A DNA stretch of 32,000 nucleotides from Candidatus Syntropharchaeum caldarium (GTDB lineage: Archaea; Halobacteriota; Syntropharchaeia; Syntropharchaeales; Syntropharchaeaceae): contig LYOS01000003.1 in assembly GCA_001766815.1 (NCBI GenBank), forward strand, positions 175,254-207,253, read 5' to 3'. The notes beneath the pieces were generated by a model. It did no database searches. It was not told the DNA's origin and saw only the letters and a list, made by a program, of their open reading frames with translations. A program made the translations under genes and the position numbers. Shown piece after piece: positions 898 to 14,982 of the stretch (positions are counted from its first letter, which is position 1; every line of letters starts with the position of its first letter).

Positions 898-1410
898 GTG
901 GGACGTGGTGTTTTGAGGCGGTTGGAAATCGAAAGAAAATTTCCAGTTGAAGTCTTTGAGGATCCAAGGGCAAAAGAAATTAAATTTCTACGATGTATCC
1001 AGTGTGGAAGATGCACCGGCGGCTGTCCCGCAGCTTACGTCTTTGATGATTTCTCACCGCGAAAAGTAATACTCAAGCTTCTTGAAGGAGAAATAGATGA
1101 CCTTCTCAGGAAAGATTTGATATGGCACTGCGGTCAGTGTTATACATGCCATATGAGATGTCCCAGAGGAAACAGCCCGGCAACAGCAGTTTTGATTTTG
1201 AGAGAGCTTGCGCTTGAACGGGGTTATTCAATTGGTAAAGTAAAAGAGATCGCAGATCAGTGTGGCAGACTGATGTGGGCAAAGGGTGTTAACTTCTATG
1301 GGGAAGGCTCAAGAGAGCTTTCAGATGAAGCAATTTGTGAGGTGCAGGAAGTTCTCAAACAAAGCGGTTATAAATCATTTCTCGAAATGCTGGGGGTTGA
1401 TCTTCCTTGA
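898..1410 (+). CDS. hdrC: Heterodisulfide reductase subunit C-like protein (2x[4Fe-4S])
   Basis: Two CxxCxxCxxxCP motifs are present (CIQCGRCTGGCP, CGQCYTCHMRCP). Size is HdrC-like, and the stop overlaps the start of the CCG-domain gene. The start is uncertain (GTG 898, TTG 913 or TTG 922). Confidence 0.75.
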   Translation: MGRGVLRRLEIERKFPVEVFEDPRAKEIKFLRCIQCGRCTGGCPAAYVFDDFSPRKVILKLLEGEIDDLLRKDLIWHCGQCYTCHMRCPRGNSPATAVLILRELALERGYSIGKVKEIADQCGRLMWAKGVNFYGEGSRELSDEAICEVQEVLKQSGYKSFLEMLGVDLP

Positions 1411-2240
1411 ATGAAGAACGGTATTATCTTTTTAAAAGCTGTGTGCTCTCGGCGTATTATCCAAAAGCTGAGGACTGCCTCAGGGCTATATTTGATGAAC
1501 TTGGCGTTGAGTATGTCAACGATCCAGCCCATTCAAGCTGTACAGGGCATGGTTATCATGCCGGGATCTATCCACTAAAGACGGCACTTGAGGTCAATCG
1601 CAGAAACTTCTCACTTGTTAAAGATAGTAATTGTGATGATATAGTGGCATCCTGCCCAACGAGCTATGCAATGCTGAAAGAGATGTCAACACTCTTAGAT
1701 GAACCAATAGGTGTTTATCATGGCTCAGAGGTGATATATAAATATCGAGATGAGATCTCAGAGATATTAAAGTATAATCTTGAGGGTATGCGGGTTGTAA
1801 CACACCATGGTTGCCATTTCACAAAGATTTTTTACAATGATGTTACGGTCGGCGATGCTGAACGCCCAGTACTTCTTGATGAGATTGCAACCTCACTTGG
1901 GGCTGAGGTTATAGACTACAGCGAACGAAGCCTGTGCTGTGGTATGGGATTCAAACATCTGCTTCTTGATCAGGAATACTGCAAAAAAATCGCGCTTCGA
2001 AAGCTTGAAAACATCAAAAAAGCAGACCCTGATTTGATACTTGTTCACTGCCCAGGCTGTCTTCTTACACTCGATCGATTCCAGGTTATTCTGGAAAAGG
2101 AAACAGGAATTGAGCTTCAGATACCAGTTTTAAACTACACAGAGCTTATTACACTCCTGCTCGGATCAGATATAGATGCAATTGGCGCAGCAGCACATCA
2201 TATCAGGCTCGACAATCTAATCAAGAGAATCGAGAAATAA
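1407..2240 (+). CDS. hdrB: Heterodisulfide reductase subunit B-like CCG-domain protein. The N-terminal CCG motif is degenerate and the C-terminal one is intact.
   Basis: The C-terminal CCG domain is complete (HHGCHF...SLCCGMGF...HCPGCLL). The N-terminal one reads FKSC...SSCTGHGY...ASCPTSY, so CCG becomes CTG and CxxC becomes CxxS. It uses a TTG start overlapping the hdrC stop and is followed 2 nt later by hdrA. Confidence 0.7.
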   Translation: MNEERYYLFKSCVLSAYYPKAEDCLRAIFDELGVEYVNDPAHSSCTGHGYHAGIYPLKTALEVNRRNFSLVKDSNCDDIVASCPTSYAMLKEMSTLLDEPIGVYHGSEVIYKYRDEISEILKYNLEGMRVVTHHGCHFTKIFYNDVTVGDAERPVLLDEIATSLGAEVIDYSERSLCCGMGFKHLLLDQEYCKKIALRKLENIKKADPDLILVHCPGCLLTLDRFQVILEKETGIELQIPVLNYTELITLLLGSDIDAIGAAAHHIRLDNLIKRIEK

Positions 2241-2242
2241 AA

Positions 2243-4303
2243 ATGAAAACTGGAATTTTTTTATGTGGTTGTGGTGGAAACATCAGTGATGTGATCGATC
2301 TCAAAGAGATCAAAGAAATATTTGAGAGCGAGAAATTTTTTGTTAAAATCGATGAACATCTCTGTTCCAACCAGGGATGCAGGCTTATAGTGAATTCCAT
2401 CAAGGATTATGGGCTGGAAAGGATTGTTATTGCAGCATGCTCACCTATGATCCATGAAAATCGCTTTAAAAAGGCGATTGCAGATCTACTAAATTTAAAC
2501 TTTCTTCAGATCGCAAATATCAGGGAGCAATGTGGATGGGTGCATCCAGCAGATGAGGCAACAAGAAAAGCGGTTGCACTTATAGGTGCAAAAGTTGAGC
2601 GGGCGAAATACGCCACGCCACAAAAGCAAGAGAGGATTGAACCATACAGAAAAGTTGCGGTTATTGGTGGTGGGGTTTCTGGTATAACTGCTGCACTATC
2701 ACTTGCAAAGTGTGGCATTGAGGTGGATCTCATCGAGCAGGATGCAACGATCGGTGGACACATGGTTCAGATTGGAAAAGTATTTTCACCCGATAAGATC
2801 GCTATTGAATGTGCACTCTGCTCGCTTGCACCAATCATGAGCGATCTCTATAACCACCCATTGATCAATCTGTACGATCGGTCAACGTTGAAAGAAGCCA
2901 CAGAATCAATGGGTAGATTTGAGCTTGTGATCGAGCGATTGCCGCGATATGTAATCGATCGTCAGTGTCTTGAGTGCGGGAAGTGCATGTATGTATGTCC
3001 GGTACATGTGCCTGATGAATGTAACCTTGGCATGAAAATGAGAAGGGCAATTTACATTCCATTTCCTCAGGCTATTCCGCCAACATTTGTGGTTGATATT
3101 AAAGCATGCATTGAGTGTGGAAAGTGCATCGAAGCGTGTGAGTCTGGTGCGATCGATCTTAAGATGTCAAAAGAGGAGATCAAACTCAATGCTGGTGCGA
3201 TCGTGGTTGCAACAGGGTATAAACGATTCGATCTTGAGCGAATTAAAGAGTATGGATATGGGAGGTTAAATAATGTTATAAGCCAGATGGAGCTTGCAAG
3301 GATCCTTGCCGTAAATGGTCCAACTCAGGGTGAACTTCTGAGTATTTCTGATCGTAAGCCACCAAGAAGGATCACCATGATACAGTGTGCTGGATCGAGG
3401 GATGAGAAGGTTGGGAACAGTTATTGTTCAAAAATTTGCTGTATGATTGCATTGAAACATGCATCTTTCATCAGAGAGCACTTTCCAGAAACCGAGGTTG
3501 TGATTTCTTATACCGATATGCGCACGATGGGGAGATTTGAGGAGTATTATCGTTATGCACAGGATCTTGGTGTGATATTTATTCGGGGCAGAGCCTCTGA
3601 AGTCGTGGAACTTGATGGTACCCTTGCTGTGAGGATGGAGGATACACTTTCTGGAGATCAGATCGAGGTTGAGTCTGATATGGTCGTCCTCTCTGAGGGA
3701 CTTGAAGCATCAGATGGTACAATTAAAGTTGCAGAGATCCTGAATCTGAACCAGCGGGAGGGGGGTTTCATAAAAGAAGCACACCCAAAGCTTCGGCCCG
3801 TTGGTACAGAGAGAAAAGGCATCTACGTCTGTGGGTGTGCAAATGGCCCAAAAGACATCACTGAGAGTGTCATCGAGGCAGGTGCTGTCTCATCAGAGGT
3901 GATCGCTCACCTCACAGGTAAAATTGAACTCAACTCAAAGGACATTAGCGACGATGAATTTCTTGCAGAGATCAATGGACATTTCCAGTGGAAACAGGAG
4001 GGTGGGGGTGTGGTACTTGCCCTTCTTGATGAACAGGTTGGATACAGATGTGCTGATAACATCGGGGCAAAACGACTGAAGTATCCTGCCAGTATAAGGA
4101 TCATAATGGTACCATCGATCGAAACGGTAAAAGAAGAACATCTCAGGTATGCACTTGATAAAGGGGCAGATCGAATCATTCTTGGGCTGCACAATGGTCT
4201 CGATCTTGAGATTCCAGAGGATCTTGAAGGTAGAGTAATAAAAGAGAATGTCTATACACCACACTTCAGGGGATTGAGAGATATATTTCTGAATCTGGGA
4301 TAA
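2243..4303 (+). CDS. hdrA: Heterodisulfide reductase subunit A-like flavoprotein with a C-terminal cysteine-free MvhD-like domain
   Basis: The HdrA N-terminal domain is present (GIFLCGCGGNISDV, AACSPMIHE, ANIREQCGWVH). So are the FAD motif VAVIGGGVSGITAALSLAKCG and the inserted ferredoxin domain (CLECGKCMYVCP, CIECGKCIEACE). The CAGSRD and CSKICC motifs are also present. The last ~97 aa align to MvhD but lack its cysteines. Confidence 0.85.
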   Translation: MKTGIFLCGCGGNISDVIDLKEIKEIFESEKFFVKIDEHLCSNQGCRLIVNSIKDYGLERIVIAACSPMIHENRFKKAIADLLNLNFLQIANIREQCGWVHPADEATRKAVALIGAKVERAKYATPQKQERIEPYRKVAVIGGGVSGITAALSLAKCGIEVDLIEQDATIGGHMVQIGKVFSPDKIAIECALCSLAPIMSDLYNHPLINLYDRSTLKEATESMGRFELVIERLPRYVIDRQCLECGKCMYVCPVHVPDECNLGMKMRRAIYIPFPQAIPPTFVVDIKACIECGKCIEACESGAIDLKMSKEEIKLNAGAIVVATGYKRFDLERIKEYGYGRLNNVISQMELARILAVNGPTQGELLSISDRKPPRRITMIQCAGSRDEKVGNSYCSKICCMIALKHASFIREHFPETEVVISYTDMRTMGRFEEYYRYAQDLGVIFIRGRASEVVELDGTLAVRMEDTLSGDQIEVESDMVVLSEGLEASDGTIKVAEILNLNQREGGFIKEAHPKLRPVGTERKGIYVCGCANGPKDITESVIEAGAVSSEVIAHLTGKIELNSKDISDDEFLAEINGHFQWKQEGGGVVLALLDEQVGYRCADNIGAKRLKYPASIRIIMVPSIETVKEEHLRYALDKGADRIILGLHNGLDLEIPEDLEGRVIKENVYTPHFRGLRDIFLNLG

Positions 4304-4305
4304 TC

Positions 4306-4641
4306 ATGAACGACAGGATAAAATCGAGAGAAAAAGCAATATTTGAAGCAGGAATTAAACTTGGAGCGCTGTATCATCAATTCATTGGTTCTCCAGTAAG
4401 TCCTGAGAGTGCAGATTCACTTGAGCGTGCGATAGAGGAAAGCATCAGAAACCAGCCCTATGTTGAATCAATCTCAGTGAGGATTGATAGAAACCATCTC
4501 AAAGAGAACCTGAACAGCTTTGGGTACACAGAGCTTACAGGGCTGATGCTTGAGGTTGAGCTTGCTGTAAAAGTTGATGAAACCCGCATTCATGCAGGAA
4601 TGAAACCTGTTGATGGCTATCCATTGATGTCACTGCTTTAA
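4306..4641 (+). CDS. mptD: Probable archaeal dihydroneopterin aldolase (MptD family, tetrahydromethanopterin biosynthesis)
   Basis: 111 aa. The N-terminal REKAIFEAGIKLGALYHQFIGSPVS matches my recollection of the small archaeal DHNA/MptD family. The start lies 2 nt after the hdrA stop. The assignment is from memory and was not searched. Confidence 0.5.
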   Translation: MNDRIKSREKAIFEAGIKLGALYHQFIGSPVSPESADSLERAIEESIRNQPYVESISVRIDRNHLKENLNSFGYTELTGLMLEVELAVKVDETRIHAGMKPVDGYPLMSLL

Positions 4642-7600
4642 CCGTGATTTTACATAGTCATCAGACTCAAGGTCAAGCCGATCCACCGCAGGGGTTGATA
4701 CGCTGGCAAGCACATCAAAAAAAACATCTTCAATCATCCTCTTTGCCTCCTCGTCCCTGCCCTCTATCCTGCATATCATCATCGGCTGTGTATTTGACTT
4801 TCTAACAAGTGCCTGTCCAAGCCATCCGTTCTCATCCTGCCATTTCACTATTCCGCCATCCGTTCTATCAATCTCAAGTCCCATCTCCTCAAAAACTTTG
4901 ATTACTGTATTTACAATTTCCTCCTTCTCTGCGAGATTGTTTGTGGGTAGCCTGATGTTTATCTCTGGTGTTGCAGGATATCTCGGAACTTCTTCATCAA
5001 GATCAATAAACGTCATGCCTTTACGCCTTGCTTTTGCAATCACAGTGAGAATCTTGACCGCTGCAAGCGTTCCATCATCAAACATCCAGTTCTCATCATG
5101 CCCTGACATCTGGTGCCCTGAAAGCTCTGCTGCGAGGACAACGTCCTCACCCTGTTTATATATCTCACGCATCCGTTTTTTTATAAAAGCAAAACCCGTC
5201 GGGGTCATTATATATTCGCCACCACAGGCTGTTATAAACTCCTCTGCAACGCGGGAGAACTTAACCTCGCCGATAAACTTCGGTTTCCTGGTTGGACAAT
5301 CCCAATCACTCAGAATGTCTTTTGCCTGTATTGCAAGTGTCCTGTCTCCCTCAACAACTCTCCCATCAGATCGAATGAAGATCACACGATCTGCATCCTC
5401 ATCATGTCCAAATCCTACAACTTCCTTCTCAGATTCACTGGCAGCAATCTTTACCACCGTATTTTCAAGCTCCTGCCTGTATTTCGCTTTTATTGGATCT
5501 GGATGATGAGCAGGGAAGTTTCCATCAGGTACGTCGTTCAGTGCCACAACCTCACACCCAAGGTTCTCATATACACTCACTGTACGCCAGCCTGTACCAT
5601 TCCCAAAATCGATCACAACCTTCAAACCGTCAAGTGGCCTCTCGACTGCGGTCTCTGGCATATCAAACTCATCTGGAATCCTGAGTTTTGCTCTGATCTC
5701 CTTCCACTTTTCTTCATCGATCGATTCGGGAAATTTAATCCCTGAAAGCGTATCAAGAAGTGGCTTTAACTCCCAGTTCTTTCGAAGATGAATCCAGACA
5801 GGTCTTGAAAGCCTGCAGTTTGATTCAACAAGTATGTTATGGTACCTGGGTATCAAACCCTCCTCAATCTTAACGTATTCACCATTTCCATAGAGAAAAT
5901 CTGATTCAAGAATTGTCCTCTTTATCTCAAGCATCTGGTCGCTATTTATACTTAAAATAAATCCATCTGCATCTTTTATAACCTGTTTAAGTCCATTGTA
6001 AGCTGCTTCATTATGCGATGCAGTAATATTTATTCCACCATCTGCATTTAAAAATGGGATTGAGAAGTAGAGTTCAGGGGTTGTGGTTATTCCCACATCA
6101 TAGACATTTACACCGCTTTTGCGTATACCGTCGATAAGTGGCTTTCTTATCCGTTCTGTTGAAAGCCTCACACCCCCACCAACACAGACCCATAATGTGC
6201 CAGGTTCTGCACCTTTTAACCTTCTGAGATAGGTACCATACCCCATTCCAAGATAATAGCATACTCTGTCAGGCAGATCTTTCTCTAATGCTCGCACATC
6301 GTATGTCTGGAATATCACAGGATCTATCGATTCGGGTGTCCGAAGGTATGCATTCAGGACCTTTCCTTTCGTACTCAGGTTATATGAGTCAATTGATGCA
6401 GGAACAAGGACAGTATCCCCTGTTTTAAGCACTTCATGCTTCTCGCCAACCTCAAGCGTAGCCTCTCCCTCGATACAGGTTAGAAGATGGAAAGAACCTT
6501 TAGTCTCCCATCTCCCGCTACCTATGGTAGAAAGTGTGAAATAGACCGTATCAAGGAGATTTATCTCCCCATCACGCTCAACTGGTTGCTGTCTCAGTGA
6601 TGCTGCATCTCGATTAAATACACATACTTTTTGAGCCTTCTCTATCTGCAGTTCTCTATCTCTGCCCCAGTCCCACACCCTGTATGTTAAATTTGACGAT
6701 TCCTGAATCTCGAAAAGACGAACACCCGCACCTATTGCGTGCAACGTACCTGCTGGAATTAGAAACACATCTCCCTGCTTCACATCAACCGCATTGAGGC
6801 AGGAGTCATCGATCATTGCGAGATCTGTTATCGTTTTGCAGAGGCTGAGATAGATCTTTGCATCTTTTTGTGCATCCAGAATGTACCATCCTTCCATTTT
6901 TCCTGGATCACACTCGCCGAGTGCTGCTGCGTCATCATCGGATGGGTGCACCTGCACAGAGAGGTTCTCTTTTGACTCGATGAACTTGGTTATTATCGGG
7001 AATTCTCCTCTGAAGTCTCTTGCAATCACACCTCCAAGAATCTTATCTGAAGCATGGTTCAGAAGGTGGATCAGTGGGATCTCAATCTCACCAGTTTCTA
7101 CCATCGTCTGATTTGCAGGATGTGTCGAAGCTGTCCATACCTCAGATCCCCACGCCTTATCAAGCCGCGCTGGTTTTAACCTGAGCACTGAATGACTGAG
7201 TTCATCAAAGAGCTTACCAAATCCTGCTGCAAAATATTTCTCCCATATGCGCTTCTCCTTTTCCATCTCATCGTGTGTGACATTTTCCATCAGCTTTTCA
7301 AGTTCGCTGTAGGAGTAGGGATTTGGAAGAAGTCTCTTATCCCAGTCCTTCTTTCCATCACGAAATATTCCCCTTCTCATTCTTATTTTTCCTTTTTCTG
7401 GATGGAAAATGTCTGAAACAACTTCTTTATCGGCTGAAAACCCTGAAAGTTCGATACAGTTGTAGATAAGTGATTCTGTAGCATGCACTTCATTCAACAT
7501 ACTTGAAACCACAACACACGCGGCAAGATCTGAGTTATAAATTGTACTATCTACCAGTGGGCTGCTCCCTTCTCCAAAGAAGCGACGCATCGTCTCACCC

Positions 7601-8628
7601 TCTGCTGTATCTGCTGTCAGCTTGAGGAGATTCTGATGGTAGAGATTTGCCTGCCCAAAGTCCCACCAGTACGTCCCTTCTCCCATATCTTTATCCCCAA
7701 ATATCGGTCCATCCTTCTCAAATCGCTTAATCAACCCTTCAAGACGTTTTCGTTTCGCTTCATCAACAAATTGAGGTGAGGTTAGCGGCATCCATAGATC
7801 GGGATCTGTATCAAGTTTTCTCTTCTCCTCAAGGTCTTTCTTAAACCCAGCTGATCTGTCTTTTGCAAACTCATAAGAGACCGAGAAGCATCCAAGCCCT
7901 TTTGCGATATGTATCTTTCCATTTTTTTCCTTTACAACTCCCTCTTCAATCAGTTTCAGAAACTCATCCCATGTCTGTTTCTCAAGCAGTCTGGCACCCT
8001 CGCCATCAGGGATTACAAGCCCGTATGACTGCCAGTTCTTCTCCCATTCTTCACGTGTTTTTGGTGCTTCACCCCTTATACTCAGAAGTTCGACGTGATA
8101 TTTCCCCTCATATGATACGTCATCTGTTGATGGTATGAAAATCTGATCTGTCCAGAATACACAGAGCCTGCCACTGCGTGATGGCGCAAATATCGAGGTC
8201 TGATATATCACTGCTTCAAGAAGCCTCATTGGTACTTTCTTTCCATCCAGATCAAGCAATCCAGGGAGTCTGATCGCGGATTTATCATTCCCCTCTGATG
8301 CAACGATGGGCGCCATTCGCTTGCCATGACCCGCGGTATGGTAGATTGCAATCCTGCCGCCTTTCTCAAGAAGTGCATAGAGGTCTTCTTTTTTACAGAC
8401 TTCCCGCCATGCATTAAGTGTACCAAGAAGTTGACCTGCTTCCCATTCTTCAACAACGACATAAATTCGTGTATTTTCACCCATAATCTGATTTTTGACT
8501 TTGTTAAGTCTATCCTGCCAGAATAACGCCTGTTTCCTGCTTGATGTCACAACAATGACTCGATCAAATCCTTTAGAGGCACGAACGATCTCCTTCATCT
8601 GCTGTATATGGGTGTGATGCGAATTCAT
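4630..8628 (-). CDS. 1332-aa three-domain fusion of a GDP-fucose-pyrophosphorylase-like sugar-1-P nucleotidyltransferase, a type I mannose-6-phosphate isomerase and a phosphomannomutase/phosphoglucomutase
   Basis: The ORF is uninterrupted for 3999 nt. aa 1-480 are GFPP/fucokinase-N-like (FDRVIVVTSSRKQALFWQDRL, AIYHTAGHGKRMAP, LCVFWTDQIFIPS). aa ~483-768 are PMI type I (LKPARLDKAWGSEVW, SVQVHPSD, KMEGWYIL, IPAGTLHAIG, YRVWDWGR). aa ~770-1332 are PMM/PGM (IFQTYDVRA, TASHNEAAYNGLK, HDEDADR, AAELSGH, RKSNTQP). A GGGAGTGAT SD lies upstream of the ATG. Confidence 0.85.
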   Translation of the reverse strand: MNSHHTHIQQMKEIVRASKGFDRVIVVTSSRKQALFWQDRLNKVKNQIMGENTRIYVVVEEWEAGQLLGTLNAWREVCKKEDLYALLEKGGRIAIYHTAGHGKRMAPIVASEGNDKSAIRLPGLLDLDGKKVPMRLLEAVIYQTSIFAPSRSGRLCVFWTDQIFIPSTDDVSYEGKYHVELLSIRGEAPKTREEWEKNWQSYGLVIPDGEGARLLEKQTWDEFLKLIEEGVVKEKNGKIHIAKGLGCFSVSYEFAKDRSAGFKKDLEEKRKLDTDPDLWMPLTSPQFVDEAKRKRLEGLIKRFEKDGPIFGDKDMGEGTYWWDFGQANLYHQNLLKLTADTAEGETMRRFFGEGSSPLVDSTIYNSDLAACVVVSSMLNEVHATESLIYNCIELSGFSADKEVVSDIFHPEKGKIRMRRGIFRDGKKDWDKRLLPNPYSYSELEKLMENVTHDEMEKEKRIWEKYFAAGFGKLFDELSHSVLRLKPARLDKAWGSEVWTASTHPANQTMVETGEIEIPLIHLLNHASDKILGGVIARDFRGEFPIITKFIESKENLSVQVHPSDDDAAALGECDPGKMEGWYILDAQKDAKIYLSLCKTITDLAMIDDSCLNAVDVKQGDVFLIPAGTLHAIGAGVRLFEIQESSNLTYRVWDWGRDRELQIEKAQKVCVFNRDAASLRQQPVERDGEINLLDTVYFTLSTIGSGRWETKGSFHLLTCIEGEATLEVGEKHEVLKTGDTVLVPASIDSYNLSTKGKVLNAYLRTPESIDPVIFQTYDVRALEKDLPDRVCYYLGMGYGTYLRRLKGAEPGTLWVCVGGGVRLSTERIRKPLIDGIRKSGVNVYDVGITTTPELYFSIPFLNADGGINITASHNEAAYNGLKQVIKDADGFILSINSDQMLEIKRTILESDFLYGNGEYVKIEEGLIPRYHNILVESNCRLSRPVWIHLRKNWELKPLLDTLSGIKFPESIDEEKWKEIRAKLRIPDEFDMPETAVERPLDGLKVVIDFGNGTGWRTVSVYENLGCEVVALNDVPDGNFPAHHPDPIKAKYRQELENTVVKIAASESEKEVVGFGHDEDADRVIFIRSDGRVVEGDRTLAIQAKDILSDWDCPTRKPKFIGEVKFSRVAEEFITACGGEYIMTPTGFAFIKKRMREIYKQGEDVVLAAELSGHQMSGHDENWMFDDGTLAAVKILTVIAKARRKGMTFIDLDEEVPRYPATPEINIRLPTNNLAEKEEIVNTVIKVFEEMGLEIDRTDGGIVKWQDENGWLGQALVRKSNTQPMMICRIEGRDEEAKRMIEDVFFDVLASVSTPAVDRLDLESDDYVKSRLKQ

Positions 8629-8746: not shown

Positions 8747-9040
8747 ATGGGACTCACGGCAAGAGAGACACTTGAACGACATGCGAGCGCTGCCATTGCA
8801 GGAGATATGGATACTGTGCTTGCAGATCTCACACCCGAGATTGCTGCAAACATCGGACCTGTCGCAGAGGCACTGGCAAAGGTAAATCCAACCTCATTTG
8901 AGATCATGGATGAGGCGAAAGAAGGTGCGAACTACGTCTTCACGTACCGCTACATCGGAAAAGATAGCGATCTAAAGCTCAAAACCGTATGGGAACTTCA
9001 GGGCGATGCATGGAAGATAGTTGCAGCCGAACCACTATAG
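8747..9040 (+). CDS. Small hypothetical protein (97 aa), possibly with an NTF2/SnoaL-like fold
   Basis: A strong SD, GGAGGTGA, lies 6-7 nt upstream of the ATG. The composition looks coding and there are no recognisable catalytic motifs. The fold guess comes only from the pattern ...AIAGDMDTVLADL...W.L.GD.WKI. Confidence 0.55.
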   Translation: MGLTARETLERHASAAIAGDMDTVLADLTPEIAANIGPVAEALAKVNPTSFEIMDEAKEGANYVFTYRYIGKDSDLKLKTVWELQGDAWKIVAAEPL

Positions 9041-9448
9041 TTATTTACCAGCCAACGGATTCACACCGAGCTTCTTTACAGTCTCTGTAAACTCCTCGAC
9101 AATCTCTGCAAAACTCTTTCCAGCCGCCTCAAGCTGAAATACCTCAAGCCGCTCTTCACCAAGACCGATCGTTTTGAGATGCCCTTTTAATATCTCCACT
9201 CGCCGCTTTGCGTGGTTGTTACCGTTTAGATAGAGACATCTACCATCCATACATGCTGCAACAAATACACCGTCTGCACCCATCTCAAACGCCTTCAGGA
9301 TATGCATCACGTCTGTTTTTCCGCTGCATGGAAGTCGAATTATTCTTAAATTCGATGGATAACTTCTTTTCTCAACGCCTGCACGATCAGCAGCTGCGTA
9401 CGAGCACGAATTGCAGCAGAACCCGATGATCTTCGGTTCAAATGTCAT
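9041..9448 (-). CDS. mvhD: MvhD-type (methyl-viologen-reducing hydrogenase delta subunit / FlpD family) [2Fe-2S] adaptor protein, copy b
   Basis: IIGFCCNSCSYAAADRAG...YPSNLRIIRLPCSGKTD...GADGVFVAACMDGRCLY is the MvhD signature with its cysteines retained. The start overlaps the hdrA stop by 4 nt. Confidence 0.85.
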   Translation of the reverse strand: MTFEPKIIGFCCNSCSYAAADRAGVEKRSYPSNLRIIRLPCSGKTDVMHILKAFEMGADGVFVAACMDGRCLYLNGNNHAKRRVEILKGHLKTIGLGEERLEVFQLEAAGKSFAEIVEEFTETVKKLGVNPLAGK

Positions 9449-12006
9449 GAGACCACCCCCAGTACCTCTTCAAGCTGTGCAAGGATCTCATCATCAGAGA
9501 AACATCCAACCTGAATCGCCTTTGCAGGACATTCTGATGCACAGACGCCACAACCACGACAAAGCCCTGATATAATCTCTGCACGATCGTAGACCATCCT
9601 GACAGCCTTGTATGGACAGAGATCAACGCACGTCTCGCATGCGATACATGCTGTCTGTGAGACCTTTGCAATCTCTCCTTTCCCCTGGATACTCGTTGAT
9701 TTAAGCACTCTCAGGGCACGCCCAGCAGCACCAATTGCATCACGCAGGGCTTCTTCGGGTGTAACGGGTCTTTTTGCATTCCCGCAGACATAGATCCCAT
9801 CTATCACGGTATCAAGTGGATACAGGCTCACTTCTGGCTGATTTGAGAGTGTAAAGATGTAACCTGCATCATCAAGCTTCAATCTGAAGTTAAATGCAAT
9901 CTTGAGACGGTCTGATACCGGAGCAGGATCAACTCCACCCCCCAGCACAACAAGATCTGGCTTGATCTGGACTTCATCGCCGAGCATCGTATCAAAGACT
10001 GATACGATCCCATCCTCGTAGACTGGTGGGTTATCTGGTTCATATCTCAGGAATATGACTCCACTCGCCCTTGCATCCCTGTAAAGCTTCTCATAGATGC
10101 CATACGTCTTAACATCCTCGCAGAGCACGAATACTTCAGTCTGAGGATTATTCTTCCTGATCTCAAGTGCGTTTGCGACCATCTCGATGCTTGCGACCAT
10201 CGACGAATCACACTGGATCATCGCAACAGCCTTTGCATCGATCCCTGGATCAAGTTCAGCCTGGGTTATGACCTTTGAATCAGAACCATGGCCATACCTC
10301 CCTGCCGGGTCAAATGGTGATGCACCTGTTGCGATCACGATCGCACCAAACTCAAGCGTGCTATCACCCACACGAGCGGTGAAGTTTCCAACAAAGCCAT
10401 CGATCTGGTCGATCTCGGTTGAGGTCATAACCTCGATTAAAGTATTTGATTCAACCTGCCCGATGAGGTCGCTGACAGCTTCATCTGGTGCACCACCACC
10501 GAGTTTATCCTCACGCTCGACCAAGTATACACCGATGCCGTTTGATGCAATCTCGAGTGATGCCCGCATACCAGCTATGCCTCCACCGATCACAAGTGCC
10601 TTCTGTGTAACGGGCAATCGTGCAACCTCGATTGGGGAGAGTCTTTTGAGCTTTGCTGCTGCCATCCTGATGAGATCGATCGATTTTGTGGTTGCTTCAT
10701 CACGTGGGTGCACCCATGCAGCATGCTCACGGATGTTTGCAATCTCAACAAGATAGCGGTTCAGACCCGCTCGCTCTGCCATGTCCCGCACCATCTCCTC
10801 ATGCTTGCGGTGCGAGAGACCTGCAACGATGATTCGGTTTGAGCCTGCTGTAACAAGCGACCCGATCTTTGATTCAAGTTCCTGTAAGGTTGCTGCCTCT
10901 TCGAGTGATGCTGCCAGATCTTTGATGCCAGCCTTCAACCTCTCAAGGTCAAGGTACTCGGCGAGGCCGTCTGTGAGGATGACAGCTCCGATCACGGGAT
11001 CACCTGAGATCTCGATCTCTGGAATGGATTTAGCCTGAGGGGATAGATCCTCTGCTGCAAGTGTTGCTGCTGCCTCTGCCTGGATCACTGAGTCTGAGAT
11101 CCTCAAAGGTGTTGATACACAGCCCGCAGCATATATGCCATCGACCGATGTCTTTACACCATCACTCACCTTGATGTAGCCATCCTCGTCAAGCTCGACG
11201 CCGGTGAGTTCTGAGATCTTCTGTGTGGATTTTGATGGGAGCAGTCCGACAGCAAGCACAACCGCATCGAGATCGAGTCGCTCGAGTTTTCCCTCTTTTA
11301 CATTTTCATACTGGACACAGATATTGCCGTTGTCTGTTATAACCTCGGGGATGCGGGTTCTGATGTAGTTGACACCCTCTGCCTTGAGCTTCTCGATCGT
11401 CTTTGCATCCCTGCCTGCAACCCTCAGATCCATGTAGAAGACGTATACCTCCACGTCTGGATTGCGGGCAAGCAGTGTCTTCACCTCGTTTGCGGTGTAC
11501 ATGCAGCAGACCGATGAGCAGAGTGGGTTGACATCTGGCTCACGTGAACCGATACACTGGATGAATCCGATTTTATTGATGTTATCAGGGAGTTTACCAC
11601 CTGTGGGGCTTGAGAGCGAGATCACTCGCTCGAATTCGAGCGAGGTATAGACGTTTGGATTTTCAAGGTGATAGCGTGACCAGATCGATGGATCAAATGG
11701 TTCATAGCCTGTTGCAAGTATGATCGATGATGCGTTTATGGTGCTGCCGTTTGAGAGCGTTATCGTGAAGTTTCCGGCTACACCATCGACCTTCTCAATG
11801 GTTGTACCTGTTATGATCTCGATCAATGGGTTTGCCTCAGCCTCGATCAGTTTTGGTTCAAAGCCGCTCACACAGTCGGCAATCTCTACCATGTGGCCGC
11901 CTGGTGTCTCTTTCTCCTCGATCAACGTGACCGACGTCCCCCTGTCTGCTAAAGAGAGGGCAGCCATGATTCCAGCTATCCCACCACCGATTACAGCGAC
12001 GGTCAT
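9445..12006 (-). CDS. hdrA: Tandem (double) HdrA-like flavoprotein with two FAD-binding halves, an internal cysteine-free HdrA-N-domain copy and a C-terminal 2x[4Fe-4S] ferredoxin domain
   Basis: There are two Rossmann motifs (VAVIGGGIAGIMAALSLADRG, ALVIGGGIAGMRASLEIASNG). CIGSRE and CSSVCC occur only in half 1. The internal region has EIANIREHAAWVHPRDEAT. The C-terminus has CIACETCVDLCP and CRGCGVCASECP. The start directly abuts the hdrB stop. Confidence 0.85.
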   Translation of the reverse strand: MTVAVIGGGIAGIMAALSLADRGTSVTLIEEKETPGGHMVEIADCVSGFEPKLIEAEANPLIEIITGTTIEKVDGVAGNFTITLSNGSTINASSIILATGYEPFDPSIWSRYHLENPNVYTSLEFERVISLSSPTGGKLPDNINKIGFIQCIGSREPDVNPLCSSVCCMYTANEVKTLLARNPDVEVYVFYMDLRVAGRDAKTIEKLKAEGVNYIRTRIPEVITDNGNICVQYENVKEGKLERLDLDAVVLAVGLLPSKSTQKISELTGVELDEDGYIKVSDGVKTSVDGIYAAGCVSTPLRISDSVIQAEAAATLAAEDLSPQAKSIPEIEISGDPVIGAVILTDGLAEYLDLERLKAGIKDLAASLEEAATLQELESKIGSLVTAGSNRIIVAGLSHRKHEEMVRDMAERAGLNRYLVEIANIREHAAWVHPRDEATTKSIDLIRMAAAKLKRLSPIEVARLPVTQKALVIGGGIAGMRASLEIASNGIGVYLVEREDKLGGGAPDEAVSDLIGQVESNTLIEVMTSTEIDQIDGFVGNFTARVGDSTLEFGAIVIATGASPFDPAGRYGHGSDSKVITQAELDPGIDAKAVAMIQCDSSMVASIEMVANALEIRKNNPQTEVFVLCEDVKTYGIYEKLYRDARASGVIFLRYEPDNPPVYEDGIVSVFDTMLGDEVQIKPDLVVLGGGVDPAPVSDRLKIAFNFRLKLDDAGYIFTLSNQPEVSLYPLDTVIDGIYVCGNAKRPVTPEEALRDAIGAAGRALRVLKSTSIQGKGEIAKVSQTACIACETCVDLCPYKAVRMVYDRAEIISGLCRGCGVCASECPAKAIQVGCFSDDEILAQLEEVLGVVS

Positions 12007-12885
12007 TTAGATCACTTTCTCCTCGATAGTTTTTGTCGATACGATGTTCTTGTTCAGACCAAGCTTCTTTGGATCGATTCCGAGACCCAGACCGACAAAC
12101 TGTGTGAAATAAAGAACTGGCATATCGAGCTTAATCCCAAAAGCAGCCTCGATATCGGGTTGCTTTGCATCAAGCATCATATGGCAGAGTGGGCATGCAG
12201 TCACGACACAGTCTGCACCCTTTGCCTTCGCATCCTCAAGCAGGTTCTTTGTCATCTCAAATGCAAGGTCGCTTCGTGTCATCATCAAAGGCCCGCCACA
12301 GCACTTTGCTTTCATCTGACTGTATGGTATCACCTCACCACCGAGTGCCTCTATCATCTTATCCATCGTTTCAGGGTTGTCAGGATCGTCAAATCCAAGC
12401 CTCGATGGTCGTCCCATGTAGCAGCCATAGTAAGGAGCAACCTTCACTGGTATCTTCTTCTCGATTCTCTTGGCTATCTCATCCAGCCCTATCTCGTTGA
12501 CGATGACATCAACAACATGCTTTGCCTTCACCGAGCCCTTGTACTCAAGTGCTGGATCGATCGCTTTCAGCTTACCCTTAAGCTCTTCATCACCCTCAAT
12601 TGCCTCATTTGTACGGGCGAGGTTATAGAAGCAGACACTGCAGGATGTTACCATCATCTTGAGGTCATCCTTCTCTGCGATGGCAAGGTTTCTTGCATTC
12701 AGGGCATAGACCATCATTGGATCTTCCGCCTCTGCCGCACCACAACAGTTCCAATCTTCAACCTCGATAAGTTCAATCCCCAGCTTCTCGAAGATTGCTT
12801 TTGTTGACATGTCCTGTTCGATCGCATGCGACTCGCTTGGACAGCCCGGATAATACGCAAGTTTACTTACAGCCATCTCAATCAC
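12007..12885 (-). CDS. hdrB: CoB-CoM heterodisulfide reductase subunit B (two intact CCG domains)
   Basis: YYPGCPSE...WNCCGAAEA...VTSCSVCFYN and YYGCYMGRP...AKCCGGPLM...VTACPLCHMM are both complete. An alternative ATG at 12876 (MAVSK...) would remove the 8-nt overlap with hdrC. Confidence 0.9.
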   Translation of the reverse strand: MIEMAVSKLAYYPGCPSESHAIEQDMSTKAIFEKLGIELIEVEDWNCCGAAEAEDPMMVYALNARNLAIAEKDDLKMMVTSCSVCFYNLARTNEAIEGDEELKGKLKAIDPALEYKGSVKAKHVVDVIVNEIGLDEIAKRIEKKIPVKVAPYYGCYMGRPSRLGFDDPDNPETMDKMIEALGGEVIPYSQMKAKCCGGPLMMTRSDLAFEMTKNLLEDAKAKGADCVVTACPLCHMMLDAKQPDIEAAFGIKLDMPVLYFTQFVGLGLGIDPKKLGLNKNIVSTKTIEEKVI

Positions 12886-13474
12886 CCAGCTCCTTAAAGA
12901 TTTTCTTTACCTCACCTATCCGCTTTATCTTTGGGGGAAGCATCGACTTTGGCCCCATCTTTCCTTTCTTGAAGAGTCTCATCCCGAGCTTCTGATAGTC
13001 CTTCTGCATCGCTAACATACCTGAAATAAGACCCCCATGTGCTTTCTTGTAATATTCCATCGAGAGCCCCATCTCATACAGTCTGCCGTACTTCTCAAGC
13101 TGGTGCATAAACGCCTCCTCAAAGATTGGTCTGACAGCTTTAAGCTTAATATTGCCTTTGTGAGCTTCTTTTTCTGCAATCCGCCTGATAGCACCCATCA
13201 GGTCAGAGATCTTCACATCCTGTGGGCAGCGTTCAGAGCATGTCTGACAGACAGCACAGAGCCATATCTCTTCACTCTCAAGAACTTCATTTCTCATGCC
13301 AAGCAGGCTCATCTGTATTATTTTTCTCGGATTGTACGTTGATACAAGTTCTGAGATCGGGCATCCGACCGTACATGTTGAGCACTGGAAGCACTTCATG
13401 ATATTCTCGCCGCCAGGCATTGATGCTATTTCATACTTGAAGTTTGGAACGAGATCCCACGTCTTGATAGCCAA
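12878..13474 (-). CDS. hdrC: CoB-CoM heterodisulfide reductase subunit C (2x[4Fe-4S])
   Basis: CFQCSTCTVGCP and CAVCQTCSERCP are present, length is 198 aa, and the gene sits directly upstream of hdrB. Confidence 0.85.
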   Translation of the reverse strand: MAIKTWDLVPNFKYEIASMPGGENIMKCFQCSTCTVGCPISELVSTYNPRKIIQMSLLGMRNEVLESEEIWLCAVCQTCSERCPQDVKISDLMGAIRRIAEKEAHKGNIKLKAVRPIFEEAFMHQLEKYGRLYEMGLSMEYYKKAHGGLISGMLAMQKDYQKLGMRLFKKGKMGPKSMLPPKIKRIGEVKKIFKELGD

Positions 13475-13480
13475 CTTAGA

Positions 13481-14536
13481 TCACCTCGGCTCAAGTTCGT
13501 CTTCTTCATACGTCGTGAGTGGGAGTGGTTCTTCGAGATCCACACCTGGCACATAATCGAAGATCGCCTGCACGTTCTTTGCCACAAGCGGGTAAATTGC
13601 TGTCAACGGCAATCCTTTTGGACACGCATCTTCACACGCACCGCATGCGACACATGTAACGCAGACGTGGTATGCCCTCGTTAAGTGATAGAATAGACCG
13701 TAAGGCGGCATTCGAAGATCTCCCCGGGTATTTGCGAGGTTCAGCATATCACCGCCACGGGGATCACCAAGAGGTTGCTCAAAGAAACATTCCTTACAGT
13801 AGCAGACAGGGCACATATCCCTGCAGTTCTTGCAGACAATACAATCATTCAATGCCTCAAGAAGTTTTACCGGGTCGTTCAATGCCTCGAGGTCTTTCTT
13901 GAGTGCTTCTCGTCCACTATCTGCTGCTGATTTTATCTCATCCTTGAGTGAAGAGCGATCAATCTCCTTCTCATCGAGCGTTATGCCCTCGACCTTCGAG
14001 AGTGCAGCCTCGCCCTTTTCATTGAGCACCATGAGCGTTGTTGTATCAAGCCCTGTATAGCAGATCCCAAGATCGCCGATATCTCCAAGCTTCGTCTCAC
14101 ACATCGTGCAGGCAGATCTCATCTCAATGCCTTCTATGCTCCCGGTGAGTTTATCCCCGATCTTATCGGCATTTGCTGTGTAATCTTCATTCTTGAATGT
14201 TCCAGGACAATCAACACTGATTAAAAGAACTGCATCTGGATTGATCTGCTCGAGCTTGACAAGTTCGATCACCGCACGCGCCTCACATGGCTTGAATACA
14301 AGTCCAAGAACTTTATCCTCAACCAGCCACTTTCTCAGGCTATTTGCAGCATTGAAACCAAACGACGGTGCAAATGGAGCAGGACTCTTTATTTTCTCAG
14401 GATCAGTTACAAGTGTATAGATGATGCTTTTTCCTGATTTCTGTGGGACCACCAGTCCATCTACTGCTCCACCCGACAGAAGTCCTTTGAATAGACTAAT
14501 AAGTCCTTCATCACCCACTTCAGCACATTTTACCAT
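13481..14536 (-). CDS. Iron-sulfur protein with an FrhB/FdhB-family-like N-terminal part and a C-terminal two-cluster ferredoxin domain; a possible F420- or flavin-dependent electron-input subunit
   Basis: The N-terminal layout resembles FrhB (GLLSGGAVDGLVV; LGLVFKPCEARAVIELVK; LLISVDCPGTF; CTMCETKLGDIGDLGICYTG versus the FrhB-type C..C.D.....aDvs.G). The C-terminus has CIVCKNCRDMCPVCYC and CVTCVACGACEDACP. A GGAGGATGA SD lies upstream. Confidence 0.5.
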   Translation of the reverse strand: MVKCAEVGDEGLISLFKGLLSGGAVDGLVVPQKSGKSIIYTLVTDPEKIKSPAPFAPSFGFNAANSLRKWLVEDKVLGLVFKPCEARAVIELVKLEQINPDAVLLISVDCPGTFKNEDYTANADKIGDKLTGSIEGIEMRSACTMCETKLGDIGDLGICYTGLDTTTLMVLNEKGEAALSKVEGITLDEKEIDRSSLKDEIKSAADSGREALKKDLEALNDPVKLLEALNDCIVCKNCRDMCPVCYCKECFFEQPLGDPRGGDMLNLANTRGDLRMPPYGLFYHLTRAYHVCVTCVACGACEDACPKGLPLTAIYPLVAKNVQAIFDYVPGVDLEEPLPLTTYEEDELEPR

Positions 14537-14559: not shown

Positions 14560-14982
14560 CTAAACTGTTTCCTCTTTGAGCGGGTTTGGTCCAAGCTTCT
14601 TCATATCCTCGACCATCTTCGTAACCTCTTCTGCAAACTGAGGCCCCTCACTTGCACTGATCCATCTCAGCCGCACCCGTTCATCAAGTCCAAAAGCCTT
14701 GAGAACCTCTCTCAACGCAGCGATCCTTCGTCTCGCATAGTAGTTACCTTTCGTGTAGTGGCAATCACCAGGGTGACAGCCACCCATGAAAACACCGTCA
14801 GCCCCGTTTGTGAGCGCTTTTATTACAAACAATGGATCCATACGTCCTGAACACATCACCCGAATTATACGAATATTAGGAGGATACTGAATCCTCGATG
14901 TTCCGGCAAGATCTGCTCCGGCGTAAGTACACCAGTTACATGTGAATCCAAGTATTTTCGGCTCAAACTCTTCTCCCATCAA
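14560..14982 (-). CDS. mvhD: MvhD-type [2Fe-2S] adaptor protein, copy a (first gene of the operon)
   Basis: ILGFTCNWCTYAGADLAG...YPPNIRIIRVMCSGRMD...GADGVFMGGCHPGDCHY is a canonical MvhD signature. A GGAGGG SD lies directly upstream of the ATG. Confidence 0.9.
   Translation of the reverse strand: MMGEEFEPKILGFTCNWCTYAGADLAGTSRIQYPPNIRIIRVMCSGRMDPLFVIKALTNGADGVFMGGCHPGDCHYTKGNYYARRRIAALREVLKAFGLDERVRLRWISASEGPQFAEEVTKMVEDMKKLGPNPLKEETV

Follow-up and report, generated by a model that had tools for sequence, protein, structure and literature searches.

A reduced, fused HdrA of Candidatus Syntropharchaeum caldarium as a probable pseudo-heterodimer with one electron relay

The energy metabolism of methanogens and alkane oxidisers has a flavin-based electron-bifurcating core, HdrA. 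A stretch of 32,000 nucleotides (nt) from the alkane-oxidising archaeon Candidatus (Ca.) Syntropharchaeum caldarium (assembly GCA_001766815.1, contig LYOS01000003.1, positions 175,254–207,253), called the window in the following, contains a fused (type II) hdrA gene at positions 9445–12006 of the minus strand, which encodes two HdrA-like halves in a single chain of 853 amino acids (aa). The gene starts with ATG and lies in a series of abutting or overlapping minus-strand genes in the order mvhD1, FdhB homologue, hdrC, hdrB, hdrA and mvhD2; window positions given below without a strand refer to the minus strand. Based on the cofactor ligands of the two halves and on a comparison with related proteins, the probability is put at about 0.6 that the protein is a type II pseudo-heterodimer, in which one trans unit, consisting of the arm of half 2 and the core of half 1, forms a single relay without ferredoxin-coupled bifurcation.

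The fused hdrA gene and its cofactor ligands

HdrA profiles and solved structures matched both halves of the open reading frame (ORF). The NCBIfam profile HdrA2 gave a match of 2e-152, and HdrA profiles covered four separate stretches of the ORF. In a PDB sequence search the solved HdrA chains 8RVV, 5ODC, 7BKB and 9SFI matched both halves, and 6TJR, an HdrA-like protein of 349 aa, matched half 1 alone. A first-pass annotation of this DNA had noted two motifs for flavin adenine dinucleotide (FAD) in one ORF of 853 aa and a visible homology of the halves. Both observations held: Rossmann motifs were located at aa 4–12 and 471–479, two Pyr_redox_2 stretches were found, and BLASTP aligned half 1 with half 2 at 30% identity over 328 columns (E=6e-28).

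For mapping of the ligands, the two halves and those of six relatives were aligned with residues 6–572 of 5ODC_A, the HdrA of M. thermolithotrophicus, the numbering of which was checked at C194, C197, E356, C386, C399, C403, C404 and K409. Half 1 (aa 1–320, positions 11047–12006, coordinates checked by translation) begins directly at the FAD Rossmann fold of its thioredoxin-reductase-like core, without an N-terminal domain and without a C-terminal ferredoxin domain; the inserted ferredoxin domain (5ODC residues ~237–318) is deleted. All four ligands of the [4Fe-4S] cluster HA4 are present, with C151, C163, C167 and C168 at the places of C386, C399, C403 and C404, in the motif CIGSREPDVNPLCSSVCC (11503–11556), and E356 is retained. 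The C194/C197 region contains one cysteine only, Cys45 (11872–11874), which is found in at least 90% of the family. The flavin-N5 lysine Lys409 is replaced by Asn173; this assignment is firm, since no gaps occur in the alignment between the CC pair and the PD motif. A lysine (K176) is found three residues past the lost K409.

A linker (aa 321–337, positions 10996–11046), ~36% conserved within the clade of close relatives and with the lowest predicted local distance difference test score (pLDDT, 61) of the model described below, leads to a copy of the HdrA N-terminal domain (N-domain; aa 338–458, positions 10633–10995, delimited by the 5ODC_A alignment). This copy contains no cysteine at all: C11, C13, C71 and C103 are replaced by L, D, L and A, and the positions of C23, C46 and C83 are also occupied by other residues, so that no ligands are left there for the "shuttle" cluster HA3. 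The core of half 2 (aa 459–775, positions 9682–10632) has the invariant residues of the FAD Rossmann fold. C386 is present as C599, and C399, C403 and C404 were lost through substitutions and a deletion of eight residues relative to the paralogues of Ca. Syntrophoarchaeum butanivorans, which left the degenerate site MIQCDSSMVASIEMVAN (10171–10221). E356 is lost, Lys409 is replaced by alanine, the C194/C197 region is without cysteine and an inserted ferredoxin domain is missing. The C-terminal 2x[4Fe-4S] ferredoxin domain (aa 776–853, positions 9448–9681, with Pfam Fer4 matches) has the sole pair of CxxCxxCxxxCP motifs of the protein (aa 787–826), the eight cysteines of which are invariant in the family.

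The alignment thus bore out the complementary degeneration which had been proposed, with HA4 in half 1 alone and the C-terminal 2x[4Fe-4S] domain in half 2 alone, as well as the cysteine-free N-domain copy between the halves and the lack of an inserted ferredoxin domain in both. The replacement of Lys409 in both halves and the loss of E356 from half 2 were additional observations. With respect to electron branches, the ligands for the high-potential branch (FAD and HA4, CX12CX3CC) are present in half 1 only, and the canonical low-potential branch is incomplete, neither half having HA3 ligands or the HA5/HA6 domain.

AlphaFold2, with an alignment of 91 sequences, predicted one compact body with a mean pLDDT of 89.6 and a predicted template modelling (TM) score of 0.89; values below 70 were restricted to the linker and a few loops. 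The best PDB matches in Foldseek were complete HdrA chains (8rvu_A with E=2e-44, 5odc_A and 7bkb_A), and 6tjr_A was found with a TM score of 0.86, normalised to the target. The predicted model agrees with a fixed compact pseudo-dimer, in which the halves would pack in the manner of an HdrA dimer. The PDB copy searched held no solved structure of a fused HdrA.

The possibility that the ORF consists of two genes joined by an assembly or frameshift error, or represents a decaying pseudogene, was considered in view of the many missing cofactor ligands and of three contigs from related metagenome-assembled genomes (MAGs; L011, L013 and L016) which break inside the gene. However, the same ORF of 853 aa was present on an independent contig from a different assembly (L014), with identities of 99% for the protein and 98.3% for the DNA. 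Orthologues of 860–880 aa occur in S. butanivorans, which possesses two paralogues of 870 and 880 aa, and in other MAGs, and the fused layout extends from end to end in all 91 full-length homologues aligned. The sets of retained ligands are invariant, and the degenerate N-domain is 66–83% conserved within the clade, compared to 57–73% for the half 2 core, which argues for selection and a role that was kept; most plausibly this role is structural, as part of the arm. Also, an overlap of 4 nt (ATGA) couples hdrA translationally to the downstream mvhD. The ORF is therefore a genuine conserved gene and not an assembly fusion, and an artefact or a pseudogene is hardly credible as an explanation.

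Distribution of the losses and origin of the fusion

The survey of double-HdrA architectures which the first-pass annotation had suggested showed a large family. It extends over Asgard archaea, Methanofastidiosia, Chloroflexota, Desulfobacteria and Thermodesulfobacteriota and includes forms of ~1470 aa with an added GltD/NfnB-like part; identities of its members with the window protein were 38–76%, with 89–100% coverage. HA4 and E356 of half 1 were present in each of the 91 full-length homologues. At the position of K409 in half 1, a lysine was found in 83 of these, asparagine in six, which all belong to the clade of the window protein (window clade), arginine in P0008 and threonine in P0010. 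The same six sequences were the only ones among the 91 in which all four cysteine positions of the N-domain were lost. In a set of 172 fused HdrAs, drawn from both database searches, the N-domain contained no cysteine in six (all from the window clade), two in one and three to seven in 165. In type II HdrAs these cysteines would ligate HA3 jointly with the cysteine of half 1. The HA4 site of half 2 was scored by motif, because the deletion of eight residues misaligns it in the representative alignment of 150 sequences.

At least two losses of the HA4 site occurred in half 2, one in the clade P0011–P0022 and a separate one within the window clade by the eight-residue deletion, which fits a dispensable site; the paralogues of S. 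butanivorans have retained it and read MIQCVGSRDGERGCSRVCC. The Rossmann residues G474, G476, G479, E497 and G503 of half 2 are invariant in the family. The losses form a graded series, beginning with full fused forms of ~1000 aa; P0008 is short of the inserted domain only, the P0011/P0021 group is missing HA4, K409 and E356 of half 2 too, and in the window clade the N-domain cysteines have disappeared as well. The inserted ferredoxin domain is also missing from a subclade of proteins with 886–908 aa. Judged from the aligned sequences, the cysteine-free N-domain and the replacement of Lys409 in both halves are specific to the Syntrophoarchaeum clade, and the losses of the inserted ferredoxin domain and of the HA4 site in half 2 have also taken place in relatives. 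In a library of 1.84 billion representative sequences the clade was represented, above 50% identity, by P0002 and the partial P0009 only. The window protein is a member of a known family which has been reduced to an extreme degree, and this variant is restricted to its clade.

The idea of a pseudo-heterodimer has already been published for this family. Chadwick et al. (2022, PLoS Biol, PMC9012536) described the fused HdrA3/HdrA4 of anaerobic methanotrophic (ANME) archaea, and proposed that such a protein acts as its own heterodimeric partner; they also reported clusters of the type MetFV-HdrA-MvhD from Ca. Syntrophoarchaeum. Lyu, Yu & Lu (2025, Microbiol Spectr, PMC12054007) defined "type II HdrA" with 176 sequences in seven classes, from a set of genomes that covers both Syntrophoarchaeum genomes; they regard K409/E356 as the signature of bifurcation, which both modules retain in 75% of type II sequences. 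The fused asymmetric, heterodimer-like HdrA which the first-pass annotation had postulated is upheld by the ligand map, as a reading that is contained in both publications. Like the window protein, HdrA3/HdrA4, which are type II HdrAs, possess two thioredoxin-reductase-like FAD modules per chain, an N-terminal domain and a C-terminal ferredoxin domain in the second module only and the cysteine of the Cys197 region in the first module only, and they adjoin genes for MvhD, HdrBC, FdhB-like proteins or MetFV; identities between this type and the window protein were 38–46% over 89–99% of the length. The common class of ~1000 aa (A3) differs in having N-domain cysteines, an inserted ferredoxin domain in half 1, and HA4 with K409/E356 in both halves, of which the window protein has only HA4 and E356 of half 1. 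The text of PMC9012536 gives the opposite order of the halves; the sequences analysed here, including A3+MVH examples of PMC12054007, start with the module that is devoid of an N-domain.

Two further systems are comparable. Canonical homodimeric HdrA (HdrABC-MvhAGD and Fdh-Hdr complexes; 5ODC, 7BKB, 8RVU, 9SW2-6) has the same module fold (Foldseek ~1e-44, phmmer 6e-84), and shares with the window protein the HA4 motif, the C-terminal ferredoxin domain and the partner MvhD. In contrast, the window protein is one chain instead of two identical ones, has no HA3, HA5 or HA6, has K409 replaced and, with one HA4, could support at most one HdrBC-type branch. The tandem pairs HdrA5/6 and HdrA12/13 of ANME-1 show a complementary distribution of N-domain and Cys197, from which an obligate heterodimer is implied (PMC9012536), similar to the window protein, although they are encoded by two separate genes and not by one fused chain.

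With respect to the origin, a lineage-specific tandem duplication of hdrA had been suggested, with fusion of the copies, reciprocal loss of cofactors and two MvhD proteins matching the two halves. The homology of the halves, their different cofactor sites and the two mvhD genes flanking the cluster would be in line with this explanation. However, in a half-by-half identity matrix half 1 was 41–51% identical to half 1 of relatives, 37% to canonical HdrA and 31% to its own half 2; half 2 grouped with other halves 2 (40–45%), and values between halves 1 and 2 were 27–35% across the matrix. Each half is thus nearest to its counterpart in relatives, including distant ones, which indicates that the fusion is old and joined two distinct HdrA lineages. 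PMC12054007 likewise arrived at a single ancient event in which two type I classes were fused, and not at a duplication. The fused layout is common to Asgard archaea, Methanofastidiosia, Chloroflexota, Desulfobacteria and others, half 1 was without an N-domain and a C-terminal ferredoxin domain already in the ancestor of the family and did not lose them recently, and the two MvhD copies stem from two separate conserved loci. A local duplication is therefore very improbable.

Gene neighbourhood and the hdrB/hdrA join

Downstream of hdrA lies MvhD copy 2 (9041–9448). Upstream are an HdrB-like subunit (12007–12885) with two CCG domains and CCG motifs at aa 47 and 195, an HdrC-like 2x[4Fe-4S] subunit (12878–13474), the FdhB homologue (13481–14536; PDB sequence matches 9t1s_M with 1.3e-27, 7bkb_E with 2.8e-23 and 8rvu_E with 1e-22) and MvhD copy 1 (14560–14982), which is of a lineage linked to FdhB-like genes. 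The FdhB homologue is ~30–60 residues shorter than solved FdhB chains and gave a weak FrhB_FdhB_C match. Besides hdrC, hdrB, mvhD and the FdhB homologue, no gene of the FdhA/molybdopterin family was found in the window, nor was a gene of the methylenetetrahydrofolate reductase family; hdrB is directly upstream of hdrA. For comparison, the FdhB/F420-linked type II cluster in Fig. 3 of PMC12054007 consists of hdrA, hdrBC, mvhD, fdhB and a homologue of molybdopterin oxidoreductases which is non-catalytic.

Two types of loci could be distinguished in other assemblies. Locus A has the order metV-metF-hdrA-mvhD (contigs L001, L003, L009, L013, L014 and L015); locus B has the order mvhD-fdhB-like-hdrC-hdrB-hdrA', followed by a gene for an Fe-S flavoprotein of ~1003 aa and a second hdrC-hdrB (L010, L006–L008, L012 and L005). 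In locus B, the ~1003-aa protein (L010 9694–12705, also L012 1770–4787 and L007 3060–5888), encoded directly after hdrA', contains a domain of the ferredoxin type around residue 100 and, further on, an FAD Rossmann fold around residue 590. In L015 (3403–7192) mcrBAG for methyl/alkyl-coenzyme M reductase, identified by Pfam, is divergent and adjoins metV-metF-hdrA-mvhD; from matching ORF sizes the same genes are probably present in L013 (1403–5234) and L009 (1427–5214).

The order of locus A is similar to that of the MetFV-HdrABC-MvhD cluster of Moorella thermoacetica (Mock et al. 2014, as cited in PMC9012536), and a paralogue of S. butanivorans also sits between metV-metF and mvhD. According to a statement of PMC9012536 alone, the Moorella HdrA is a fused double HdrA, too. 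Unlike the Moorella complex, the archaeal metVF-hdrA-mvhD loci contain no hdrBC, and the substrate would be a derivative of tetrahydromethanopterin (H4MPT). The window has hdrCB and the FdhB-like gene upstream at the place of metVF in a cluster of the Moorella type.

The window appears as a combination of both loci. An hdrA which is 96–99% identical to that of the window is situated directly after metV-metF and before mvhD in three other assemblies (L014, L013 and L015). In every stretch of 90 nt the window hdrA was 98–100% identical to L014, so that it is of locus-A type over its whole length, and the similarity to L014 begins 11 nt upstream of the ATG. The DNA upstream of this join (12007–12017, at the end of hdrB) is of locus-B type, with 98.8% identity to L016, a contig which covers no more than the first 72 nt of hdrA. 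L016 and L014 do not differ in the first 83 nt; a repeat shared by both locus types thus lies exactly at the join. An arrangement of hdrB followed by this hdrA and mvhD2 was not found in any independent assembly; a scan of metagenome contigs for sequences spanning the junction yielded L016 only, with its stop 72 nt into hdrA, and the GC profile showed no step at the join. The window may contain a natural recombinant of A and B or be a chimeric contig, with a slight preference for a chimera. The native partners of the protein are likely MetV-MetF and MvhD, as in the three other assemblies; if the window was correctly assembled, they would instead be FdhB-like, MvhD and HdrBC proteins.

The first-pass annotation had also related the asymmetry of the halves to the two flanking MvhD proteins. 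This connection could not be sustained: the copies are 49% identical to each other and originate from two separate conserved loci, MvhD2 being 81% identical to the MvhD of a locus-A contig (L001), and in the three assemblies mentioned metV-metF and not hdrB precedes hdrA. MvhD copy 2 contains the motif CMDGRCLY, and copy 1, like the solved MvhD-related chain 8rvu_F of the Elp-Hdr complex, reads CH(P/I)GDCHY. The histidine and aspartate of the latter motif may correspond to His68 and Asp71, reported near a ligand between MvhD and the cysteine pair of HdrA.

The two Syntrophoarchaeum hdrA paralogues are mosaics. In comparisons with P0003, P0005 and L010, the paralogues were 75–97% alike over the first ~660 aa and 23–50% over the last ~190 aa, and past a zone at aa ~660–690 (9937–10029) the resemblance of the window protein is limited to paralogues with mvhD downstream. 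Over the last ~190 aa the sequence varies together with the gene downstream, which is either mvhD or that for the ~1003-aa Fe-S flavoprotein. The first ~660 aa look like a case of concerted evolution, and the mosaic pattern reflects 5' parts which were homogenised between the two paralogues and 3' parts which are specific to each locus. An origin of the 5' three quarters of hdrA from the hdrCB locus was considered and rejected, given the identity of 98–100% of the whole gene with the MetF-linked copy on L014.

Further genes in the window include a second Hdr cluster, hdrC-hdrB-hdrA, at 898–4303 on the plus strand. Its HdrA of 686 aa has an N-domain, the cysteine pair and the inserted ferredoxin domain. 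A C-terminal ferredoxin domain is missing from it, and its last part is an incomplete MvhD-like segment, which matches positions 1–59 of the FlpD profile only. An ORF of 97 aa at 8747–9040 (plus strand) is without Pfam match and is found at the same position after mvhD in L014. At 4630–8628 an ORF of 1332 aa contains a mannose-6-phosphate isomerase (cupin) part fused to a full phosphoglucomutase/phosphomannomutase; ~490 of its N-terminal residues gave no Pfam match.

A single trans unit and its electron path

Recent structures from cryo-electron microscopy (cryo-EM) showed that HdrA works in trans, with a mobile arm of one protomer swinging onto its partner (PMC13580544; PMC13518236). The arm comprises the N-domain, in which the HA3 shuttle cluster is located, and in addition the C-terminal domain and the bound MvhD; the core which it serves comprises the cysteine pair, FAD, HA4 and inserted ferredoxin domain of the partner. 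According to the same studies, electrons pass from MvhD and the arm to Cys202'/205', FAD', HA4' and on to HdrC and HdrB, and the low-potential electron moves from FAD' via HA3 to HA5' and HA6'; the position of the cysteine pair between the MvhD cluster and FAD was described in PMC13580544.

In the type II proteins P0026 and P0069, with ~1000 aa, half 1 has the parts of the core, namely the cysteine pair, FAD, HA4 and the inserted ferredoxin domain, without an arm. The arm belongs to half 2, the core of which is devoid of the cysteine pair and the inserted domain. Exactly one complete trans unit would therefore have been present from the outset. The arm of half 2 and the core of half 1 would form this single working unit, and the reciprocal unit would be dead, which is why the losses look complementary. 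The retention of one trans unit would explain the pattern across the family better than the division of labour between the halves that had been envisaged. A single electron path instead of two symmetric ones, which had also been predicted, would follow from the single HA4 site, since only one path to an HdrC/HdrB-type partner is then available.

In the window protein the surviving unit is also short of the low-potential (ferredoxin) branch, with HA3, HA5/HA6 and K409 missing. We propose a reversible relay, in which electrons may pass from a partner module to the C-terminal [4Fe-4S] pair, the [2Fe-2S] cluster of MvhD, perhaps Cys45, FAD of half 1, HA4, an HdrC-type subunit and HdrB, without canonical ferredoxin-coupled bifurcation; the core of half 2 would be a scaffold with FAD still bound. 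The canonical route to ferredoxin is absent, because the ligands and the domain are missing, and the enzyme would be non-bifurcating or use another exit. With the revised potential of -281 mV for CoM-S-S-CoB, the heterodisulfide of coenzymes M and B, as cited in PMC12054007, simple coupling to F420 or to the methyl/methylene-H4MPT couple would be thermodynamically reasonable.

Several points weigh against this proposal. Half 1 still has E356, so that its flavin could bifurcate; K176, at +3 from the lost K409, may compensate for it, and in P0008 the same shift is seen (R409 with K412). Two FAD sites together with the 2x[4Fe-4S] domain could make an unconventional low-potential exit. For the oxidation of CoM-SH and CoB-SH by alkane oxidisers, confurcation is commonly regarded as necessary (PMC9012536, PMC12054007). 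The set of partners is uncertain, as the hdrB/hdrA join of the window was seen in no other assembly, and according to PMC12054007 none of the archaeal type II HdrAs has been characterised biochemically.

The enzyme might thus still bifurcate or confurcate through a rebuilt low-potential branch. For instance, ferredoxin or a partner could receive electrons which have left FAD of half 1 through the C-terminal [4Fe-4S] pair and MvhD copy 2, with electrons of intermediate potential being supplied by MvhD copy 1 and the FdhB-like subunit; as another possibility, the second FAD could participate. Besides E356, the neighbouring lysine and the published arguments for confurcation, the invariance of both FAD Rossmann motifs, the two different MvhD lineages encoded in the window and the covariation of the last ~190 aa with the downstream gene, which points to the C-terminal ferredoxin domain as an interface for partners, would speak for such a branch. 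However, the missing ligands of HA3, HA5 and HA6 belong to the only low-potential path which has been demonstrated, there is a single mobile arm, K409 is missing from both halves and both mvhD genes occur together in this window only. A rebuilt branch is accordingly considered rather unlikely, and a single relay without ferredoxin-coupled bifurcation is preferred.

More tentatively, an ancestrally bifurcating fused HdrA could have been converted in Syntrophoarchaeum, by loss of the HA3 shuttle cluster, the inserted domain and the flavin lysine, to a non-bifurcating flavin/Fe-S adaptor with a single path, with gene conversion keeping the paralogues similar over the first ~660 residues, the last ~190 residues determining the partner, and the window as a natural recombinant. 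The partner wired in would be MvhD with MetFV, or the Fe-S flavoprotein of ~1000 aa with a second HdrCB; in the window an FdhB-like/HdrBC module would be coupled to a HdrA-MvhD module of the MetFV type. This scenario is possible, although doubtful at present.

Since the concept of the fused pseudo-heterodimer is not new, the value of these results is incremental, and metabolic models should not be based on the operon context of the window before the hdrB/hdrA join has been verified. Fused type II HdrAs are widespread, and the window clade represents a natural "minimal" version, which shows parts of the dimer that are dispensable, namely the second HA4, the HA3 shuttle cluster and the inserted ferredoxin domain. 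The pattern of losses fits the trans-acting mobile-arm mechanism known from the recent cryo-EM structures, and the clade should be a good test case for the question whether an HdrA without its ferredoxin branch still bifurcates.

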